The notes under the pieces: generated by a model
The model's input: only the letters and a program-made list of their open reading frames with translations
Database searches by the model: none
Told to the model about the DNA's origin: nothing
Shown: piece by piece, positions 2 through 53,777 of the stretch
How positions within the stretch are numbered: the first letter of the stretch is position 1
How the letters are laid out: every line of letters begins with the position of its first letter
Assembly (NCBI GenBank): GCA_963701665.1
Contig: OY969622.1
Span: 96,001 to 160,000, forward strand
Source of the DNA: Candidatus Babeliales bacterium
GTDB lineage: Bacteria; Babelota; Babeliae; Babelales; JANWKD01
Direction of reading: 5' to 3'
DNA length: 64,000 nucleotides
Program-made: the position numbers and the translations under genes

Positions 2-868
2 GCCGCAATAGAAGAATACAAAAACATTGAGTCATTCTCAGGGAAAGGAAAGACAGCCTATCAAGATTTGACTAAAAAAAATGCAAATGCAAACATTGTC
101 GATCCAACAGTATTAGAAAAAACTGAGACTTCTATTGGTGAAGATAAACAAAAAATTGAGGCCCTATTAGAAAATATAACCTCTGATAAAAATGCTCCTA
201 GTACGCTCGATACACTAGCAACCTCATTAGATAAAAAAGTTGAAGACTTGCTTATAAAAATTTCACAAGCAGATCCTTCAGAGCGATCTTTAGAATCTCT
301 AAATAGGCTTGCTAATGCTTTAGATAATTTGAGTAACCAAGTTGTTGCTGTCTATCAAACGTCAGCTCTTTCGCAAGAGGCAAAAATTGCCCTGTTGAAA
401 ACATATCTCGAATTGGATGGCAGATTTAAACTAATTTCATCGCAAATTATACGAGATAAAAGTGCTTTATCAACGTTAATCCCTACTCTTGAAGGTGGCG
501 TTGCGCTCGTCCAATTACCACAGGTCGTAAGGGCAAATGTAAAACAGTTACAAACAAAACCTACGATAGAAGCACCACAGCAAACATTTGATCGTAAAAC
601 CGGAAAGCCTACACAAAACCCTATCAGGCAAAATGCTACAATGACTTTACAAAATGCAGACAATTTATGGTCGGAGGGAAACAGCATTAAGGCTATAACA
701 GCAGGTACACCAGCAAATAAATACCTAGCTGGCGTCAGAGACGCAAACATTAAAGCGCCTGAAACGAATGAGTGGATAAAACTTACCGCAGAGGCACTTC
801 TTGAGAAAGCTTCCCCTAAACAGGGTGATACCAATCAACCGACTGAAGGGACTGGTTATGGTGATTAG
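2..868 (+). CDS. Hypothetical helical protein, 5'-partial; paralogue of the C-terminus of 23613..25808
   Basis: Frame is open from position 2 (AAIEEYKNIESF...). Shares KISQADPSERSLESL / EISKADPSQRELESL and LPQVVRANVKQLQ / LPQVIRSNVKEIQ with the 731-aa ORF. Confidence 0.8.
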   Translation, partial: AAIEEYKNIESFSGKGKTAYQDLTKKNANANIVDPTVLEKTETSIGEDKQKIEALLENITSDKNAPSTLDTLATSLDKKVEDLLIKISQADPSERSLESLNRLANALDNLSNQVVAVYQTSALSQEAKIALLKTYLELDGRFKLISSQIIRDKSALSTLIPTLEGGVALVQLPQVVRANVKQLQTKPTIEAPQQTFDRKTGKPTQNPIRQNATMTLQNADNLWSEGNSIKAITAGTPANKYLAGVRDANIKAPETNEWIKLTAEALLEKASPKQGDTNQPTEGTGYGD

Positions 869-1079
869 GCGAAGAAATTTTAGCAATAGCCCAAAATCTA
901 GCATTTTTTAGTTGCTTTTTATCAAGTTTTGATGCCGACTTTGGTCGGCATCTACATGAGTTGTGCCCATTTTTTTGATTTCTTGCTAGTCTTATCCGCT
1001 TGCTCATGAAAGCATGCTATGGTACCATGAGAAATGAGACAAAGCGGATTCATTGTAAATTATACAATGAACACAAGAG

Positions 1080-1189
1080 TGTCTTCCCGAGGAGCAAAGC
1101 TCCGTGGGGATCCAGAACTTTAATAAATTCCTTTATGGACTAATTTTATTATCTGGGTTGCCGCGCCACATACGTGGCTCGCAATGACA
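1080..1189 (+). repeat. Palindromic intergenic repeat (REP/RPE-like), copy 1
   Basis: tgtcttcccgagg...cgtggggatccagaactttaataaattcc...ctgggttgccgcg...ctcgcaatgaca; related copies recur across the window. Confidence 0.85.
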
Positions 1190-1252
1190 ATTTGTTTTCA
1201 ATATATCCGTCTTAAGGACAAAATTTTATCTATCAAAATGGGCGTATTAAAT

Positions 1253-12095: not shown

Positions 12096-12914
12096 TTACC
12101 AATTAAAATCTTTTTCATAGCCAAGATCTATAAGCAATTGCCCAGCAACTTTTTTAAAAGCAGCTTTATGTCTTTCTAAGAAATGTTCTTTCCATGAGCC
12201 AATTTTGCCTTCACGAAACGTCGTCGTTCCGCCAAATAAGACTGACGAGATTTTTTTTGCTTCTTCTCTCGTAATAACATGGCCAAGGAAACTTGCTATT
12301 GCAATAATCTCATGTATCTGTGTTTCTTCATCGCCCCCACCTTCTTTACCTACTAATTTTTCAAATGTCGTCGCGTATACATTAGGTTCAAATCGCCATG
12401 GTAAATAGAGGTTATAAAATGATGCTACATCTTTTACATGAATCCATGGATTTTGTGCAAGAAATATTGTTGACCATAGCATACTTCCATCTGTTATCAA
12501 TGCATCAATAAGCTCATCTAAACTCCATTCATGCTGAGGAGCCCTCTCTATAGTTTTTATCCAAAAAGCTGCCGAAACAATTTGATCGCGTGGATCTCTA
12601 TAAATAAAAACTTTTTTAATACGTACATCGTTCAATTTTTTTATATTTTTTTCAACATAAATCGCATGAGCTATAAGAATAAAAAGCGGACTCGTCATAA
12701 GTATTTTAACCGCTTGATCATCGATCAAAAAGAATCTCTTACGCGGAATAGCCAACTGTGCATAGCAAATTTCTGTCAGCATCTTTAATAATAAATTAGT
12801 GCCACATTTGGGGATAGTGATTGCTGTTACACGATACATATCCTCAGAGCATTGTCCACCTAGTAATCCAACGTAAAGTATAACGATTCCCAGTATATTT
12901 TTTCTCATATTCAT
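12096..12914 (-). CDS. PAPS-dependent sulfotransferase with hydrophobic N-terminus (copy A)
   Basis: 5'-PSB TIPKCGT, 3'-PB YRDPRDQIVS, C-terminal FREGKIGSWKEHF. Confidence 0.88.
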   Translation of the reverse strand: MNMRKNILGIVILYVGLLGGQCSEDMYRVTAITIPKCGTNLLLKMLTEICYAQLAIPRKRFFLIDDQAVKILMTSPLFILIAHAIYVEKNIKKLNDVRIKKVFIYRDPRDQIVSAAFWIKTIERAPQHEWSLDELIDALITDGSMLWSTIFLAQNPWIHVKDVASFYNLYLPWRFEPNVYATTFEKLVGKEGGGDEETQIHEIIAIASFLGHVITREEAKKISSVLFGGTTTFREGKIGSWKEHFLERHKAAFKKVAGQLLIDLGYEKDFNW

Positions 12915-17672: not shown

Positions 17673-18491
17673 TTACCAACCGAAGTCTTTTTCATAACCA
17701 AGATCTATAAGCAGTTGCCCTGCAACTTCTTTAAAAGCAATTTTATGTCTTTCTAAGAAATGTTCTTTCCATGAACCAATCTTCCCTTCACGAAATGTCG
17801 ATGTACCCCCAAATAATTCGTCGGCAATTTTTTTTGCTTGTTCCCAAGTAAGAGGTTTACCTAAGTGATTTCCTATTGCGATAATTTCTTTTATTTGTTC
17901 ATCCTCACTACCACCTCCTTGTTTTCCGATTAATTTTTCAAACGTTGTGGTATATACATCTGGCTCAAATCGCCATGGTAAATATATATTATAAAATGAA
18001 GCTATATCCGTTATTTGAAGCCAGGGATCGTCAGACAAAAATACTTTGGACCATAAGAACCCGGTGTTCATTATCAATGAATCAATAAGAACATCTAAAT
18101 CCCATGTTTTTTCCTCTATCCTTTCTATAGTCTTTAGCCAAAAAGCTGCAGAGACCACTTGATCACGAGGATCTCGAAATATAAAAACTTTTTTTATTCG
18201 CTCATTACTCATTTTTTTAATATTATCATTAACATAAATTGCATGTCCTACGAGCAACCACCTTGGATCCATCATCAGCATTTTTATGGCATTGGCATCA
18301 ATTAAAAAAAATCTTCTACGAGGAATAGCTACCTTCGCATGAGACATCATTAAAAGCATTTTCGCTAATAGCATGGTACCACATTTAGGGATAGTTATTT
18401 CTGCGACACGATATAAATCAGGATATTGCTGAGCGCATAATCCAACATTAATTATGAATAATGCTATTTTTACTACGTTTTTTATACTCAT
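17673..18491 (-). CDS. PAPS-dependent sulfotransferase (copy B)
   Basis: TIPKCGT, FRDPRDQVVS and FREGKIGSWKEHF motifs; hydrophobic N-terminus. Confidence 0.88.
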   Translation of the reverse strand: MSIKNVVKIALFIINVGLCAQQYPDLYRVAEITIPKCGTMLLAKMLLMMSHAKVAIPRRRFFLIDANAIKMLMMDPRWLLVGHAIYVNDNIKKMSNERIKKVFIFRDPRDQVVSAAFWLKTIERIEEKTWDLDVLIDSLIMNTGFLWSKVFLSDDPWLQITDIASFYNIYLPWRFEPDVYTTTFEKLIGKQGGGSEDEQIKEIIAIGNHLGKPLTWEQAKKIADELFGGTSTFREGKIGSWKEHFLERHKIAFKEVAGQLLIDLGYEKDFGW

Positions 18492-18611: not shown

Positions 18612-19424
18612 TTACCAGTTAAAATCCTTTTCGTAACCGAGATCTATAAGTAGTTGCCCTGCAACCGCTTTAAAAGCAATTTTATGTCTTTCTAAGAAAT
18701 GTTCTTTCCATGATCCAATCTTTCCTTCACGAAATGTCAATGTACCCCCAAATAATTTGTCGGCGATTTTTTTTGCTTCTTCCCAGGTAAGGGATTTACC
18801 TAGGTGATTTGCTATTGCAATAATTTCTTTTATTTGTTCATCCTCGCTACCGCCTCCTTGTTTTCCGACTAACTTTTCAAATGTTGTGGTATATACATCC
18901 GGTTCAAATCGCCATGGTAAATATATGGTATAAAATGAAGTTATATCAGTTATTTGAAGCCATGGATCATCTGAGCAAAGTACTTCAGACCATAAGGGCC
19001 CAGTATTCATGATCAGTAGATCAATAAGCACATCTAAATCCCATGTGCTTTCTGGCATCCTATCTATAGTTTTTATCCAAAAAGCTGCAGAGACCACTTG
19101 ATCACGCGGATCTCGAATTATAAAAACTTTTTTTATTTGTTCGTTACTTATTTTTTTAATATTATCATCAACATAGATTGCATGTGCTATGAGCAACCAC
19201 ACTTTACTTTCCATAAACATTTGCATGGCATCATCATCAATTAAAAAAAAACTTCTACGAGGAATAGGTAATTTTGCATGAGTCATCATTAAAAGCATTT
19301 TCAGTAGCATGTTGGAACCACATTTAGGAATAGATATTCCTACAACACGATATAAATCACCGTTCGCACATAATCCAAAATGAATTATGAATAATGCTAT
19401 TTTTACTATGTTTTTTATACTCAT
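18612..19424 (-). CDS. PAPS-dependent sulfotransferase (copy C)
   Basis: SIPKCGS, IRDPRDQVVS and FREGKIGSWKEHF motifs; close paralogue of copy B. Confidence 0.88.
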   Translation of the reverse strand: MSIKNIVKIALFIIHFGLCANGDLYRVVGISIPKCGSNMLLKMLLMMTHAKLPIPRRSFFLIDDDAMQMFMESKVWLLIAHAIYVDDNIKKISNEQIKKVFIIRDPRDQVVSAAFWIKTIDRMPESTWDLDVLIDLLIMNTGPLWSEVLCSDDPWLQITDITSFYTIYLPWRFEPDVYTTTFEKLVGKQGGGSEDEQIKEIIAIANHLGKSLTWEEAKKIADKLFGGTLTFREGKIGSWKEHFLERHKIAFKAVAGQLLIDLGYEKDFNW

Positions 19425-20326: not shown

Positions 20327-20680
20327 TTAAAATCTATTTCTTGGAGGACGAGAAGAACCCCAACCACCGCTGCCGCCATTACCGCGATTACCGCCGCGAT
20401 CACCGCCAAAACGATTATCACTTCGAGGGCCGCGAGCTTCAGGGGCACGTGCTTCATTTACTCGTAGGGCTTGTTTTTCCAACTCGTAACCATTCAATTC
20501 GGCTATTGCTTGCTGAGCTTCAGCTGTAATAGGCATATCAACAAAAGCAAATCCACGGGTATCACCAGTAAATTTGTCTTTGATAATTTTAACTGAGGAG
20601 ACTTCGCCTTTTCCAGCAAATAACTGTCTTAGCATGTCTTCTGTCACTGTACGTGCAACATTGCCAACATATATGTTCAT
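20327..20680 (-). CDS. RRM RNA-binding protein with Gly/Arg-rich tail
   Basis: RNP2 IYVGNV, RNP1 RGFAFVDM, LRVNEA. Confidence 0.95.
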   Translation of the reverse strand: MNIYVGNVARTVTEDMLRQLFAGKGEVSSVKIIKDKFTGDTRGFAFVDMPITAEAQQAIAELNGYELEKQALRVNEARAPEARGPRSDNRFGGDRGGNRGNGGSGGWGSSRPPRNRF

Positions 20681-21073: not shown

Positions 21074-23611
21074 ATGATCGCACAGATATTAGCAAAGATT
21101 GTGGGTACTGCCAATGTACGCCAATTAAGAAAACTCAGGCCCATTGTTGATCATATTAATAGCTTGGAGCCTAAAATAAGCGCTCTCACTGACGAGCAAT
21201 TGGGTGCAAAAACTAATGAATTCCGAGAACAGTTAAGCAAAGGCAAAACCCTCGATGATATTTTGCCCGAAGCGTTCGCCGTTGTACGCGAAACCGCCAA
21301 ACGAGAGTTAGGGCAACGCCACTTTGATGTCCAACTTATTGGTGGCATCGTATTGCATCAAGGTAAAATCGCCGAAATGAAAACGGGGGAAGGTAAAACC
21401 CTCACAGCAACCTTGCCTTTATACCTTAATGCCTTGAGCGGCAAAGGTGCTCACTTAGTCACGGTGAATGATTACTTGGCAAGACGTGATGGCACCTGGA
21501 TGGCGCCTGTATTCAATCGCCTAGGGCTCAACGTGGGCATTTTACAAAATCATATGGGCGATAAAGAACGCAAAGAAGTGTATAACGCTGATATCGTCTA
21601 TGCAACTAACAACGAACTCGGTTTTGATTATTTACGCGATAATATGAAATTCAGGCTTGAAGATTACGTTCAGCGAGAACTTCATTATGCCATCGTTGAT
21701 GAAGTTGACTCAATCTTGATTGATGAAGCGCGAACGCCACTCATCATTTCAGGTTCTTCAGATAAAAGCAGTAACCTCTATGCGCAAGCAAATGCCGTAA
21801 TCCCTCGTTTGAAAAAAACTGAAGATTATGAGGTCGATGAAAAAGCACGCTCGGTACAATTAACTGAATCCGGCGTTGATAAAGTTGAGGCTGCATTTCA
21901 TATTGATAACTTATATGCAATTGAACATCTCACGCTGCTGCATCATATTAATCAGGCATTGCGCGCTCATGCATTGTTCAAAAAAGATGTTGATTACGTT
22001 GTCAAAGATGATGAAGTACTTATCGTTGATGAATTTACCGGCCGAATTTTTTCAGGTAGACGCTATAGTGATGGATTGCATCAAGCAATAGAAGCAAAAG
22101 AAGGAGTAAAAATCGAGCGTGAAAGCCAAACACTCGCTTCTATTACACTCCAAAATTTCTTCCGTTTATATAAACGTTTAGCGGGTATGACAGGAACTGC
22201 GCTCACCGAAGCTGAAGAATTTCATAAAATTTACGGACTTGATGTTATTTCAATTCCAACGAATCAACCTATGATTCGTATCGATAAGCCAGATCTAATA
22301 TTCTTAACAAAAGAAGCAAAATATAAAGCAATTGCACAAGATGTAAAAGAACGGTATGTAAAAAAGCAGCCAGTTCTTATCGGTACTATTGCTATTGAAA
22401 CTTCAGAACTTTTAAGCAGTATTCTCCACGCACATGGCGTCCCCCATGAAGTGCTCAATGCTAAACAGCATGAGCGAGAAGCAGAAATTGTTGCTCATGC
22501 GGGCGAACCGGCACATGTAACCATCGCCACCAACATGGCAGGCCGCGGTACTGATATTAAATTAACACCAGAATCTATCGCAGCAGGCGGTTTATATATT
22601 CTTGGTACCGAGCGTCATGAAAGTAGACGTATTGATAATCAGCTGCGAGGGCGATCGGGACGTCAAGGCGATCCTGGAGAGTCTCGTTTTTACATTGCAC
22701 TCAACGATGATCTCATTCGCATATTTTCAGGCGATCTCATTGAAAAAAATATGCGCCGCGTCGGTATGCAAGAAGATGAAACGATCGAATCGCGGTTTAT
22801 TTCTAAATCGATTGAAAACTCTCAAGAAAAAGTTGAAAAAAGAAATTTTGATATCCGTAAACATCTCCTTGAATATGATGATGTGTTAAACCAACAACGG
22901 ATTGTGGTATATGCTTATCGCCGTTCTATTTTAGAAGGCGCCGATGAAATTTACGGCTTTGTCCGTGAGCTCATTCGTGAATCCGTGCATGACATGATCA
23001 AGGAATTTTCTCCAGCACGCACGGTTTCACCCGAGGCTTTTGAAAATATCCTTAAACCGTTAAGCACCATGACAGGTATTCCCGTTGATGACTTACATAA
23101 AGAAGGATTTTCTACTTCAAGTTCTGAAAACCTTGAAACAGATATCGTAAATTTCTTGCTCATGAAATATGATCTCTATCGCAATCAACAGCCATCTGAA
23201 AGAGTTCAAGAAGCTGAGCGTTGGCTCATGCTTGAAACTCTCGACAATGCCTGGAAACAGCACATGCTCAATCTAGGACATTTAAAAGAAGGTATTGATT
23301 TGCGAAGCTGGGGTCAAAAGAATCCTTTGATTGAATATAAACGCGAAGCATTCGCTATGTTCCAGGAAATGATGCAACAAGTTCGTTGGGAAATTGTTCA
23401 TCATGTATTCCATCTCAATCTTGAACATTTCAACAAAGCAGAACTTGAAACAAAACGTCAACGTGAGCTTGATCAACTCAATTTAATATCAGCAGAAATG
23501 GGCGATAACGAAACCCCAAAAACAGTTGTCAATAAAGAAGAGAAAGTTGGCAGGAACGATCCATGCCCATGCGGTTCGGGCAAAAAATATAAAAAATGCC
23601 ATGGATCTTAA
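21074..23611 (+). CDS. secA: Protein translocase subunit SecA
   Basis: [41 protein letters not shown] and [23 protein letters not shown]; start moved to MIAQIL after ggag. Confidence 0.98.
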
Positions 23612-23612
23612 A

Positions 23613-25808
23613 TTAAATATCCCAACCGGCAGATTCTGTAGCTCCCCCTGCTGGCTGAGAAGCTGAAGCTTCTAATGACTGCGCATATGTTTCGATTAAT
23701 TTTGCACCTTCAGTGACAGGTGAACTAGTTTTTGCAAGAGGTACTTGATCAATTTGATCGATAAGAACATTTTGTTCATCGATATTTTTTTGAGAAACAT
23801 TTGCTCCGGCATCCCATATATTTTTTGCAAGCTCAATTGTGGATTTGTTTGGTAGTGATCCTGTCGTAGGGATTTTCTGTATCTCCTTAACATTTGATCT
23901 TATTACCTGCGGCAACGTTACAACATTATTACCAATAACGGCTGTTAATGCGCCTTGTACTCGAGATGCTTCACTTGCTAATTGATCGAATCTAATATTC
24001 ATTCTCAAATATGCTTTTGCTAATACTCGTGCAACTTCTGAAGAAAGATCACCTTTTAACATAGAACCATTAACTTCTCCCATTAAATCACTCAGGGCAT
24101 TCAAAATTCGTTGTAGAGACTCTAGTTCCCTCTGTGAAGGATCAGCTTTTGAAATTTCTTCATAAATTTTCTTTATGTTTGCATCAAAATTTTTGAGTAA
24201 GGCATCTATTTTTGCGTCATTTTCAGGCGCCAATGTTTTTAAGGCATCCTGAATAACAATTTTATCATTGCCTAAGGCAGTTTCTATTTTTTCCAACCTC
24301 TGAGGATTAATTATTGTAGCATTTTTGTTCTTGGCAATTAAAGCTTCATACGTTTTAACCTCCTGAGAGTTAAACTTATTTCTTAACTCAATGTCTTTCA
24401 TGATATTTGCATGCTCAATTTCAAATCTTTTTGCCTGTGAACCAAAATAGTTGAATCTTTTTTGTATCACTTGTTGTTTATCTTTTGGAAGCTTTTTAAA
24501 TGCATCACTACGAATAAAATTACCATATGTATCTTGAATTTTTTGATAAGATTGCATTAAGACATTAGTTATCTTCTCACCAGTTCTTGGATCAGATAAT
24601 AATGAGTACTTCACTTTTGCTAAATCATCTAAATAGAACATCATGGAAGAAAAATCTTTTTCGTTTTTTCCATAGCCTGTCATATTGCGATCCAAAAATG
24701 CAGTAAGATTTTCAAGATTGTTCTTACTTAACAACGAATTTGCTCGTTTCTGTGTTGCTTCAGCTAGTTGTTCTAATTCACTCTTTACTGGTCCCGGCCC
24801 AACTGATTGCAAATCCATTTGTTTTATAAGACTTTCAACATCACTGCTCAATATAGCTAATTCTTTTTTAAGAGCTTCTTCCGATATGCCAACACTTTTA
24901 GCAAATTCTGCAGTATTTATTCTTGCTATCTCATTACGCAACTCTAAAACATTCAATGCTATATCTTTAATGGCATTTTTACTGAATGCCTTTTCTCTTG
25001 CTACTTGCGCATCTCGTTTTATCTTTTCTGTATCGGCTTTTGATGTACTCTTTTTCAGCTTTTCAGTCTCAATACGATTAATTGCATCCAATTTTGCTAT
25101 ATAGCCTTCCAAAGCATACATTGAATCCTGAATGGCTAAGGTAACACCGTGCATTTTATATCTCAAACGATCAGCCGCTAAAAGATTTTCAGTTTGTTGT
25201 AAGGGTTTATTAAGCTCTCCATATAAATCTGCAAGTTCCTTATAGCCATTCATAGCCCCATTGTAATCACCGAAAGCCTCAAAAACCTTAGTCAATTTTG
25301 ATGTAACCCATATTTCAAAATTCTTACCAATTCGTTGACCTAACGTAAGCTCGGCTTCAGATATTTTTGAAGGTTCAGTCGTTGTTGATGTTCCTTCTGA
25401 TGCTAATGTGCTCTGAAGTTTTTTGATTTGTATTTCAATATTTACTTTTTCCTTGGCAGCTAATTCTTTTTCAACTTTCAAAGTTACCGAATCTTTAGGC
25501 TTAAAATTTAATACTTCAGCCACTGCCTTTATTTTAGCTTCTAAAGACGTCTGTAATTCCTCATTAAGTTTAATAAGGTCTTCTTGTGCTATTTTTTCAC
25601 TAGCTTCGTCACCGCTTTTTCTTTTTTGTTCAATCTCTTGTTCTTTTCTTATGATCTCTTCTTGCTTAGCAGAAACCTCTTTAGTTTTCATGCTTAATTC
25701 TTCACGGGCTTCACTAACATCTCTAACTCGACCTTCATGAGAAGCAGAAAATATAGAAAAAGGAAGCAACAAAAACCAAACATACATCATGAAAAAACTA
25801 AGCTTCAT
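23613..25808 (-). CDS. Secreted coiled-coil/helical hypothetical protein (effector-like)
   Basis: Signal peptide, charged heptads; C-terminus paralogous to 2..868. Confidence 0.8.
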   Translation of the reverse strand: MKLSFFMMYVWFLLLPFSIFSASHEGRVRDVSEAREELSMKTKEVSAKQEEIIRKEQEIEQKRKSGDEASEKIAQEDLIKLNEELQTSLEAKIKAVAEVLNFKPKDSVTLKVEKELAAKEKVNIEIQIKKLQSTLASEGTSTTTEPSKISEAELTLGQRIGKNFEIWVTSKLTKVFEAFGDYNGAMNGYKELADLYGELNKPLQQTENLLAADRLRYKMHGVTLAIQDSMYALEGYIAKLDAINRIETEKLKKSTSKADTEKIKRDAQVAREKAFSKNAIKDIALNVLELRNEIARINTAEFAKSVGISEEALKKELAILSSDVESLIKQMDLQSVGPGPVKSELEQLAEATQKRANSLLSKNNLENLTAFLDRNMTGYGKNEKDFSSMMFYLDDLAKVKYSLLSDPRTGEKITNVLMQSYQKIQDTYGNFIRSDAFKKLPKDKQQVIQKRFNYFGSQAKRFEIEHANIMKDIELRNKFNSQEVKTYEALIAKNKNATIINPQRLEKIETALGNDKIVIQDALKTLAPENDAKIDALLKNFDANIKKIYEEISKADPSQRELESLQRILNALSDLMGEVNGSMLKGDLSSEVARVLAKAYLRMNIRFDQLASEASRVQGALTAVIGNNVVTLPQVIRSNVKEIQKIPTTGSLPNKSTIELAKNIWDAGANVSQKNIDEQNVLIDQIDQVPLAKTSSPVTEGAKLIETYAQSLEASASQPAGGATESAGWDI

Positions 25809-25875
25809 TTTTATCCTTTATTGATTTACTTTTTCTTTTATTAATAAAGGATTTTTATTTTAAAAAGCAATAAAC

Positions 25876-26085
25876 CATATCTTCCGTCTCAATCTTGAAC
25901 ATTTCAATAAAGCAGAACTTGAGACCAAGCGGCAGCGTGAACTTGATCAACTCAACTTGATATCGGCAGAAATGGGTGACAATGAAGCACCAAAAACGGT
26001 CGTCAATAAAGAAGAAAAAGTTGGCAGAAATGATCCATGCCCATGTGGTTCGGGTAAAAAATATAAAAAATGCCATGGATCTTAA
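25876..26085 (+). pseudogene. secA: Second, diverged copy of the last 70 codons of secA
   Basis: Gap-free 210-bp match to 23402..23611, encoding [14 protein letters not shown]...[15 protein letters not shown]. Confidence 0.92.
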
Positions 26086-26152
26086 ATTAAATTTGATATG
26101 GAAATCATGTGGTATTCACATGATTTCTATGCACATCTAGTTAGAAAAAAAT

Positions 26153-26341
26153 TTAATTTGATGAGTTATTTTTCTTTTTTTTATCAGGAGTAGTGATCTT
26201 TATGGGTTTTAACTTTTCAGGTTGCTTACCCTTATATTCATCATAGTTGAGCTTACACTCAGATTTTTTTTCATAATCTTGCATTGCAAAACAAAAAGCG
26301 CTCGCTAAACACAGACAACAACCTAGTAATATTTTTTTCAT
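26153..26341 (-). CDS. Small secreted basic protein
   Basis: RBS ggag; MKKILLGCCLCLASAFCFAMQD signal peptide. Confidence 0.55.
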   Translation of the reverse strand: MKKILLGCCLCLASAFCFAMQDYEKKSECKLNYDEYKGKQPEKLKPIKITTPDKKKKNNSSN

Positions 26342-52161: not shown

Positions 52162-53439
52162 TTATTTGCTATGGTTTTTCGCTGAAGCACCTAAGTAGGC
52201 AGCAACATCAACCTGTTTCATACGTTCTTCATGCCCGGTAATCATGTTTTTTACCGTAACTTCACGCGATTGTTGTTCATCAGGGCCAATTAATAAGCAA
52301 TGTTGAGCGCCCATTTTATGAGCCTTGCGCATCATACTTTTAATTGATTCTTGTTCAAGCAGAATATCAACACAGAAATTTTGGGCATATAAGGTATCGG
52401 CAAGTAAAAGGGCCAAACCATGTTGCTCGGGAGAAAATGGTACAATTACTTGTAAGGCTGGAGGTTGGGCGATTGGCAATTTATCTTTAATCGGTTCTAA
52501 TAAAAGAAGCACGCGTTCAATACCCATCGCGGCACCGATCGAGGGAACATCATGCTTGGCGCCGAGTGCCGTTGCAAGCCGGCTATATCGCCCGCCACCA
52601 CAAAATGCATTTTGTGAACCCAAATCAGTACTCATAAATTCAAAGACTGTTTTATCGTAATAATCAAGCCCGCGTACTAAATTGGGATTTATGGTATAAG
52701 AAATTGAGAGCAGCTGTAAATTAATTTGCAATCGCTGCCATTCATCTTTGCACGTTGCGCATAAATAATCGGTAATATGAGGAGCTTTTTTATACACTTC
52801 CTTGCACGTTTCAACTTTACAATCAAAAATGCGTAAAATATTGTGCTCTTTGCGCACAAGACAATCTTTGCATAATTCTTTTTCATGCTCGTTCAAAAAC
52901 GCGTGCAACACTTCTTTAAAACGCGCGCGATCGTCAGCACATCCGAGGAAATTTATTTGTAATGCGTACGCATCGAGTGATAAGCGCTCTTGAAAAAGGC
53001 GATCGAGCATTGCAATGAACTGCACATCTTGATCTATTGAGGTGCAGCCGATATTTTCAATATTCACTTGATGAAATTGTCGGAATCTTCCTTTTTGTGG
53101 CCGCTCGTAACGGAACATAGGGCCATAGGAATAGACTTTCCAAGGCGTACTGAAAGTTCCATCCTGCAAAAACGCGCGCATGGTTGATGCGGTCGCCTCA
53201 GGACGTAAACACAGCGATGCTTCCTCTTCAGATTTATGTCCATGCACAATGAACATCTCTTTACTTACCACATCGGTTTCTAACCCAAGCGAGCGTTTAA
53301 AAAGGTCAGTGTGCTCAATAATTGGAGTAGCAATCTCGGTAAAATTATACAACGCACAATGCTTCTGCACCGATTGCACAAGGAAATTAAAAAGCCGCAA
53401 ATCCAAAAAATCATGAGTACCTTTAACACGAGAAAGCAT
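52162..53439 (-). CDS. hisS: Histidine--tRNA ligase
   Basis: LRPEATA, FRYERPQKGRFRQFHQ, LVRGLDYY and GGGRY motifs. Confidence 0.98.
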   Translation of the reverse strand: MLSRVKGTHDFLDLRLFNFLVQSVQKHCALYNFTEIATPIIEHTDLFKRSLGLETDVVSKEMFIVHGHKSEEEASLCLRPEATASTMRAFLQDGTFSTPWKVYSYGPMFRYERPQKGRFRQFHQVNIENIGCTSIDQDVQFIAMLDRLFQERLSLDAYALQINFLGCADDRARFKEVLHAFLNEHEKELCKDCLVRKEHNILRIFDCKVETCKEVYKKAPHITDYLCATCKDEWQRLQINLQLLSISYTINPNLVRGLDYYDKTVFEFMSTDLGSQNAFCGGGRYSRLATALGAKHDVPSIGAAMGIERVLLLLEPIKDKLPIAQPPALQVIVPFSPEQHGLALLLADTLYAQNFCVDILLEQESIKSMMRKAHKMGAQHCLLIGPDEQQSREVTVKNMITGHEERMKQVDVAAYLGASAKNHSK

Positions 53440-53777
53440 AGAGAAGAATCCTTTAAAAAAAGCATAAAATTGCTTATTATTATTTTTTATTCTAACACAT
53501 AATAAAAAAATTTACCTATTTTTTAAAAAAGAGTTGACTTTTCTCAGGATAAACTGTTACAACACATGCAACACTAAAAATGTATTTGCAAAAGGAGCTG
53601 CCTATGAAATAAAACATCAAGCTCTTTGCATCAAATTCAAGACTGAATTTATAAAAAAAATAATTTTTTTTATTTAAATGATTGACATTATCGTTATGAT
53701 CTTGCTAAAAAACAAGTGAAGTTAAAAAAATGTGTCGTAGATGTACTGTTCTAACACTTCTAAAAAAGGAGTTTTTC

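Follow-up and report, generated by a model that had tools for sequence, protein, structure and literature searches.

One-sided, or homology-facilitated, recombination is well documented at the bench, and in nature it has been inferred mostly at toxin loci. The locus described here lies at secA, in a genome of the Dependentiae, an obligate intracellular, protist-associated phylum. Named relatives of its SecA agree with a placement in Dependentiae/Babeliales. Within a window of 64,000 nucleotides from a Candidatus Babeliales bacterium (positions 96,001-160,000 of a single 1,337,192-bp contig, OY969622.1, with 37% G+C; genome G000), the intact secA gene is followed by one inserted gene encoding 731 amino acids (p731) and then by a second, 5'-truncated copy of the secA 3' end. 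The two copies differ mainly at synonymous sites, and alleles of two different lineages were joined at secA; with a probability of roughly 0.55, p731 was acquired by one-sided homologous recombination with an illegitimate far joint.

Among known systems, phage 21 and the e14 prophage, both inserted at the Escherichia coli icd gene, offer parallels. According to PMC13626634, e14 is flanked by icd, the 3' end of which extends into the prophage, and by the C-terminal pseudogene icdC, and its excision changes synonymous sites plus two Asp/Glu residues. As there, the housekeeping gene at the present locus is intact, its 3' end would derive from inserted DNA, and the displaced, truncated end lies on the far side with mostly synonymous differences; e14, however, spans 15 kb, encodes a site-specific recombinase of its own and occupies a fixed att site, whereas here there is one gene, no recombinase in the window, many targets, and repeats of 36-217 bp. 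In the rhs system, as portrayed by Jackson et al. 2009 (PMC2935791), incoming DNA likewise enters by recombination at a gene's conserved part, and the former end is pushed downstream as a silent orphan keeping a partial repeat; serial events build arrays, comparable with that behind a TamB-like gene of a related genome discussed below. What changes at rhs is a variable toxin tip with its immunity gene, whereas at secA it is a conserved end that is duplicated, the genes affected belong to the ordinary core set, and what is new is the cargo that follows the stop codon. No polymorphic toxin with a variable tip and an adjacent immunity gene, as would mark an rhs, contact-dependent inhibition (CDI) or type VI secretion system (T6SS) locus, was found here, the target being SecA and the cargo belonging to no Pfam or NCBIfam family.

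There is also a resemblance to homology-facilitated illegitimate recombination (de Vries & Wackernagel 2002; Prudhomme et al. 2002, as cited in PMC5361080 and PMC3240628), in which there is one homologous anchor and one illegitimate joint, and foreign DNA is trapped beside a conserved gene. The events so described are laboratory ones, mainly with deletion of recipient DNA, whereas here homology extends downstream past the joint, giving a short duplication, and the events are natural, recurrent, and in an intracellular parasite. The displacement of T6SS effector-immunity modules in Vibrio cholerae, for which PMC5361080 proposes a conserved upstream anchor and an illegitimate downstream joint, also leaves orphans, but as presented there it is limited to effector/immunity loci and involves no duplicated housekeeping-gene end. 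Finally, single-crossover insertion-duplication of circular DNA flanks the insert with a direct duplication, of 109-950 bp in the experimental plasmid setup of PMC3240628; such a system cannot yield the 36-bp mismatched repeats found here. None of the Babeliales or Dependentiae publications listed by literature searches describes such footprints, which does not prove them to be unpublished. The parts of the locus, in window positions as used throughout, are as follows.

21074..23611, plus strand: secA, intact, 845 amino acids; matches to SecA_DEAD, SecA_PP_bind, P-loop_SecA, SecA_SW and SEC-C each exceed the Pfam cut-off
23402..23618, plus strand: copy A, the final 69 secA codons, the stop codon and ATTAAAT; likely the incoming allele
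23613..25808, minus strand: p731, the cargo, 731 amino acids, convergent with secA; signal-peptide-like N-terminus, predicted all-alpha, no Pfam or NCBIfam family
25809..25875, no strand assigned: A+T-rich stretch of 67 bp 5' of p731, containing the p731 ribosome-binding site within a 13-bp inverted repeat (25813-25825 / 25840-25852) and terminating at the proposed illegitimate joint
25876..26092, plus strand: copy B, the 5'-truncated orphan of the secA end; likely the displaced resident allele
26097..26131, no strand assigned: hairpin with a 15-bp stem directly 3' of copy B; likely the original secA terminator, shared with a convergent small gene

One open frame (21074-23611) encodes all five SecA domains, which identifies the product as the SecA preprotein translocase ATPase; it is 87% identical to SecA of a genome of the same genus, from a sister species, that was used for comparison (G001). 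Copies A and B, the sole two copies of the secA end in G000, are identical at 192 of 217 bases without a gap, including the ATTAAAT after the TAA stop codon, and outside them identity is at chance level on either side. Left of 25876, identity per block drops from 9-10 to 2-3 of 10 bases, and at this junction homology between insert and recipient is absent. The sole long open reading frame (ORF) between the copies is p731, whose stop codon (23613-23615) and last sense codon fall within the shared ATTAAAT, so that a single base separates its end from the secA stop codon. The first-pass annotation, made from the sequence alone, had described both the gap-free alignment of the two ends with their shared heptamer and the solitary gene between them with its stop codon inside that heptamer, and the sequence and ORF list confirm it on each count. 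The region of the hairpin beyond copy B (26080-26150) folds at -21.6 kcal/mol (z -5.61; 0 of 200 shuffles equally good), and no strong hairpin is present 3' of copy A (fold z -1.0). Dispersed repeats are absent from the vicinity of the island.

Read in the secA frame, the 69 codons of the two copies contain 20 synonymous and three non-synonymous differences (V/I, H/R and T/A), reproducing exactly the approximate count made earlier by hand, and 21 of the 23 base differences within 23408-23611 fall on third codon positions. The Nei-Gojobori method gives 22 synonymous differences (Sd) over 42 sites and three non-synonymous differences (Nd) over 165 sites, corresponding to synonymous and non-synonymous divergences (dS and dN) of 0.90 and 0.018 (dN/dS ~0.02). 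Random placement of 25 changes yields 17.6 non-synonymous ones on average, and five or fewer occurred in 0 of 20,000 trials; in place of the unbiased differences that had been named in advance as grounds for abandoning the idea, a strong synonymous bias is therefore found. Had the orphan drifted neutrally over the whole of the divergence, approximately 43 non-synonymous changes would be expected against the three observed (P = 2.5e-15). Polarisation by G001 assigns 11 synonymous changes privately to A, and four synonymous changes plus one non-synonymous change (His to Arg) privately to B; at the V/I site, B retains the Ile found in all relatives and A has Val. The copies are 88% identical to one another, against 78-80% for either copy and G001, and between G000 and G001 synonymous sites are saturated over the entire secA gene (proportion of synonymous differences, pS, 0.70).

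Judging by these comparisons, orphan B cannot be a copy that decayed in place, because it is identical at 68 of 69 residues to an end still joined to secA in a conspecific assembly. This identity and the low dN/dS support the earlier proposal that both copies evolved as functioning secA ends in separate lineages, and a footprint of 69 codons is long enough to establish on statistical grounds that a different lineage once used the displaced end as a working allele. The direction of the exchange was tested by divergence from G001 (0.70 for A and 0.56 for B, not significantly different, with synonymous sites saturated) and by the number of derived synonymous changes (11 in A against four in B, P = 0.12); GC content, at 34% for p731, 41% for secA and 37% for the genome, is uninformative on origin.

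The neighbours of the island serve as anchors for comparison with other strains and with G001.

20327..20680, minus strand: u117, an RNA-binding (RRM-type) protein gene, the upstream neighbour of secA and left synteny anchor; NCBIfam Rbp_regulator at 6.7e-26, under its cut-off
26153..26341, minus strand: small secreted ORFan gene of 62 amino acids
26358..28438, minus strand: fcl (GDP-L-fucose synthase) and gmd (GDP-mannose 4,6-dehydratase), the right synteny anchor, named from NCBIfam

The NCBIfam score of gmd is 604 bits, over the cut-off, and that of fcl is 483 bits, slightly below its cut-off of 500. The order RNA-binding gene, secA, fcl, gmd is kept in G001, where the orthologue of the first is 85% identical in the same position and those of fcl and gmd, 76% and 85% identical, lie 1.9 kb 3' of secA. 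The interval between G001 secA and fcl consists of 1.9 kb of unrelated small ORFs and contains neither p731 nor a second secA end; absent from G001, the p731 insert is lineage-specific.

Conspecific assemblies are known through their proteins alone, from exact look-ups in a protein collection, and their genes are often split by frameshift-like errors. One conspecific contig of 1,323,443 nt encodes Fcl and Gmd identical to those of the window at 323 of 324 and 367 of 369 residues, respectively. A SecA C-terminal piece from this contig (P0238) is the one that equals orphan B at 68 of 69 residues, the sole difference being the Arg of B (His/Arg), and it belongs to an intact secA because it begins 47 residues ahead of the repeat boundary. 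It differs from A at the V/I and T/A sites, and also by Gly/Asp some 43 codons upstream of the repeat. Orphan B is thus, on protein comparison, an allele functioning as the secA end in a conspecific, and its single private amino-acid change fits a brief period as a relic. SecA residue ~733 is Gly in strains of type A and Asp in those of P0238 and P0240, in agreement with a replaced tract that would extend upstream of the repeat. The tails distinguished at the protein level are as follows.

Type A (V, H, T): P0144, P0232 and P0239, on contigs of 1,534, 77,305 and 6,313 nt
B-like type (I, H, A): P0238, on the contig of 1,323,443 nt
Third type: P0240, on a contig of 29,690 nt
Fourth type (I, H, S): P0236, on a contig of 69,598 nt

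Copy A is the outlier allele, because its DNA identity to B is 88% inside a background that is ~99% identical. Equality of contig sizes places on each of two contigs (6,313 and 29,690 nt) the C-terminal part of a SecA together with variants of p731 (99% identical) and of the 62-aa gene; the protein clusters contain no p731 or 62-aa member from the 1,323,443-nt contig. SecA searches found no donor with an A-type tail outside the species, the nearest full-length tails being G001-like at 80-82%, and a metagenome scan with a degenerate protein pattern returned 14 loci, all distant (SecA identity <=68%), and no sister strain. In one genome of the same order, the only secA matches (G037:C1:1032823-1035356) are full of in-frame stops, with 12 TGA, one TAG and four TAA in the first piece, representing either a broken gene or an error-rich assembly.

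The same footprint recurs elsewhere. All 1190 ORFs of at least 100 amino acids in G000 were screened for genes whose last 12 residues are recopied (at least 10 identical) before a stop codon no more than 8 kb downstream. Tandem paralogues aside, this identified secA and five more genes, given here with the codons copied, the ratio of synonymous to non-synonymous differences, and the cargo.

hpf: 46 codons, 3 : 3; a YhcG-type nuclease gene
gatB: ~17 codons, 1 : 0; two ankyrin genes and a split IS200 transposase
gyrB: 12 codons, 4 : 0; a 299-aa ORF ending in the copy
HAD hydrolase gene: 18 codons, 8 : 1; a convergent 360-aa ORFan
Class I aminoacyl-tRNA synthetase (aaRS) gene: 12 codons, 6 : 2; a 658-aa WD40 gene

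There may be a seventh locus, situated behind a secreted ORFan of 171 amino acids. The same search in the upstream direction of G000, as a control, gave no orphan-type match, its 14 matches comprising 13 tandem paralogues and one gyrB reciprocal. In G001, where the entire contig C6 was screened (585,661 bp, 505 ORFs), footprints were found at a TamB-like gene, with three serial orphans, and at aspS, a beta-lactamase-fold gene and murB, with one orphan each; their homologous parts together contain 27 synonymous and three non-synonymous differences. Among the TamB-like orphans, the nearest copy is the least diverged, the series running from three and six synonymous differences in ~31-32 shared codons to five, plus one non-synonymous, in 18. 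Pooling both genomes gives 69 synonymous to 12 non-synonymous differences, against a synonymous share of 0.33-0.40 predicted by neutral decay in place (P < 1e-16; without secA, P < 1e-11). Over all loci the repeats range from 36 to 217 bp. Those of gyrB and aaRS in G000 are 36 bp with four to eight differing codons, that of aspS in G001 is also 36 bp (12 residues), and copies of 12 codons are too short, and match too poorly, for a crossover within the repeat. The TamB-like array itself (L056, G001:C6:76700-84101) has orphans of 18-32 codons with different cargo between them, and the intact gene is separated from the first orphan by two small conserved genes.

At hpf (L059, genome positions 848341-850085), the YhcG/DUF1016 nuclease gene is enclosed by the 3' end of hpf on one side and, on the other, by an orphan copy of that end, terminator hairpin included. 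This 1.22-kb unit is 91% identical in DNA to G001:C5:7955-9176, at a different locus, against 77% for hpf itself, so the cargo is mobile; no long direct repeat was seen flanking the G001 copy. Around the G001 nuclease gene (L061, G001:C5:6455-10676), 26-bp palindromes AATTGTCC-ACAGCTG-GGACAATT recur, one of them within its coding sequence. At genome positions 1253001-1254528 and 53101-53495 are three identical tandem IS200-type Y1 transposase genes and a split copy inside the gatB island.

In the favoured reading, a linear fragment from a related Babeliales lineage, presumably taken up through transformation-like machinery, would have paired with secA, and the donor allele (copy A) would have substituted the secA 3' end up to the last shared bases, ATTAAAT. 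The non-homologous far end of the fragment, 67 bp past the start of p731, would have been joined illegitimately 69 codons ahead of the resident stop codon, and a silent remnant of the resident allele, lacking its 5' part (copy B), would have persisted next to the old terminator hairpin. Copy A, now on secA, most likely arrived together with p731 and displaced the resident end, a direction that we infer. One single event of this kind would yield an intact secA, a tight insert, a truncated resident end at the old terminator, cargo ORFs fused to the orphan (as at gyrB), and repeats of 36-217 bp, which would vary in length because the illegitimate joint is free in position. RecA (434 bits), DprA (249 bits) and a ComEC-like protein (84 bits, a partial match) are encoded in the genome, scores that speak to gene presence only. 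The earlier remark that no integrase is in view holds, in that the window contains no recombinase gene matching PF00589 or PF00239; elsewhere in the genome, PF00589 matches only at 730 and 809 kb (XerC/XerD-like) and PF00239, the large serine recombinases, at 227, 357 and 647 kb.

Several observations weigh against this reading. The assembly with the third tail type (P0240, 29,690 nt) also has p731 at 99%, so the cargo occurs with two tail types and is not tied to allele A. The absence of p731 from the 1,323,443-nt contig is a weak point, judged as it is from absence from the clusters alone, and the A-type contig of 77,305 nt is also without a p731 member. No donor sequence was found, and the role of A as the incoming allele is what we infer from the sequences. 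The junctions at 23611/23619 and 25875/25876 are crossed by no contig of the public runs, and hpf (3 : 3) and gatB show little or no synonymous bias and could represent events in place or between near kin. In addition, if secA is considered by itself, a single crossover with a circle explains the structure equally well, and in E. coli conjugation, as reported in PMC3240628, single crossovers with duplications of 109-950 bp far outnumber true one-sided events, accounting for 56 of 60 clones.

In this alternative, the main rival, unlikely though by no means fanciful, circular DNA carrying a secA 3' fragment and p731 would have entered the resident secA end through a Campbell-type crossover mediated by RecA, which is present, duplicating 217 bp; the circle may have been excised between such repeats in another strain, and the incoming copy may be either of the two or a mosaic. 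An intact gene, an insert and a 5'-truncated copy, with the whole homologous segment directly repeated, is the exact structure of an insertion-duplication. A run of 37 nt identical between A and B (23582-23618) could accommodate the crossover, and circular intermediates are proposed for rhs tip displacement in PMC2935791; the same run could be an att core, or just conserved Lys-rich codons. Such a crossover cannot, however, produce the 12-codon repeats of gyrB and aaRS in G000 and aspS in G001, for which a second mechanism would be needed. The circle would itself still require an illegitimate closure at 25875/25876, and if B came from a conspecific, the 12% divergence of A demands an additional, earlier import. 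A site-specific element of the e14/icd type, surviving as a remnant or acting in trans, with an attP that carried the replacement secA end and an integrase since lost or situated elsewhere, is very improbable. It would predict the intact target and displaced, 5'-truncated 3' end with mainly synonymous differences that are observed, and the genome does have three large serine recombinases; but the window has no match to either recombinase family, and both of the genome's tyrosine recombinases resemble XerC/XerD. The insert comprises a single gene, with 67 bp ahead of its start and nothing beyond its end. At least ten target genes in two genomes would furthermore demand equally many specificities, and the lengths of the repeats vary.

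A similarly slender chance attaches to two separate events, in which p731 was inserted with duplication of the secA end in place and a foreign allele later replaced that end by ordinary homologous recombination. The secA end is indeed polymorphic, with at least four tail types amid ~99% identical Fcl and Gmd or near-identical p731, and p731 occurs with two of these types. The pair of events would nevertheless be needed at each of secA, gyrB, the HAD gene and the aaRS gene, and again at the TamB-like gene, aspS and murB of G001, and we know of no process that makes target duplications of 36-217 bp in place. Hardly credible is a chimeric join of two co-occurring strains during assembly: the public assemblies do contain several strains of the species and both insert junctions are uncovered by public-run contigs, but the DNA upstream of p731 and secA codon 776 share no overlap on which to join, the genome is a single contig of 1.34 Mb, and the same footprint is seen in the independent genome G001. 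Public-run contigs of 151-333 nt identical to the window cover parts of p731 and 25905-26237, the 333-nt contig, from another run, spanning copy B into the downstream flank without a difference; the 6,313- and 29,690-nt contigs, in so far as equal sizes identify them, each hold the SecA piece, p731 and the small gene together. The public runs with matches that are listed number five, all with small shares, and no RNA run is among them. As the mechanisms are weighed here, all of these readings require DNA from a second lineage.

The secA footprint is a natural, recurrent variant of known recombination routes, present at ordinary core genes in two Dependentiae genomes and thereby extending beyond toxin loci. 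The question of how lineage-specific secreted, ankyrin and WD40 genes enter reduced intracellular genomes that lack classic mobile-element machinery thereby becomes testable. Searching a few kb 3' of each gene for a repeat of its final codons is a simple screen by which gene gains in any genome can be dated and put in order. A tentative extension is that the ends of core genes act in Babeliales as portable homology arms: accessory genes, linked to a segment of a conserved gene, would pass from one co-infecting lineage to another, enter by RecA without an integrase, exit as circles via the flanking repeats, and leave orphan arrays as a dated fossil record. If true, this would be a main route by which reduced intracellular Babeliales genomes acquire effector-like genes.

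The description of p731 itself as effector-like is not upheld, its sole basis being the signal-peptide-like N-terminus and an all-helical model without matches. The gene has no Atlas match in addition to lacking a Pfam or NCBIfam family, and its all-alpha AlphaFold model (predicted local distance difference test, pLDDT, 70; predicted template modelling score, pTM, 0.42) matches nothing in the PDB at E <=0.001. The family is tiny, with 15 representatives among 1.84 billion proteins and members in three of 151 genomes of the order, G000 included, and its loci differ between species: a tandem pair in G001 sits between genes that are adjacent in G000, and the second member in G000 (767 aa, ending at window position 868) sits between genes that are adjacent in G001. 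It had been suggested that duplicated gene ends be sought beside this paralogue (2..868) and others; none was found there, and the same footprint was found at other genes. Directly downstream of the 767-aa paralogue, window positions 1041-1237 (genome 97041-97237) hold a dispersed repeat of ~110-180 bp, with ~98 matches in the genome at 75-94% identity, which is also common in G001. The DNA upstream of p731 has no other match in the genome. The plus strand of this 67-bp stretch folds at -12.3 kcal/mol (z -2.66), and its 13-bp inverted repeat (25813-25852), which overlaps the p731 ribosome-binding site, is followed by a T-run on the plus strand; it could be a stop for read-through from secA, or a gate on translation of the cargo.

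The first-pass annotation had further suggested that orphan B could encode a SEC-C mini-protein. The in-frame ATG (25972, MGDNEAPK...) is present and would give a peptide of 37 amino acids, but the mini-protein itself gains no support: no promoter-like site is called between 25809 and 25971, the peptide is not found in the protein collection, and the synonymous bias is equal on either side of the ATG (Sd 11 and Nd 2 upstream, Sd 11 and Nd 1 downstream). Selection on a mini-protein cannot explain the bias, because it is as strong upstream of the ATG. Elsewhere in the window, three paralogous sulfotransferase-domain genes lie on the minus strand (12096-12914, 17673-18491 and 18612-19424), with 78-88% DNA identity in their 3' parts and two of them in tandem.

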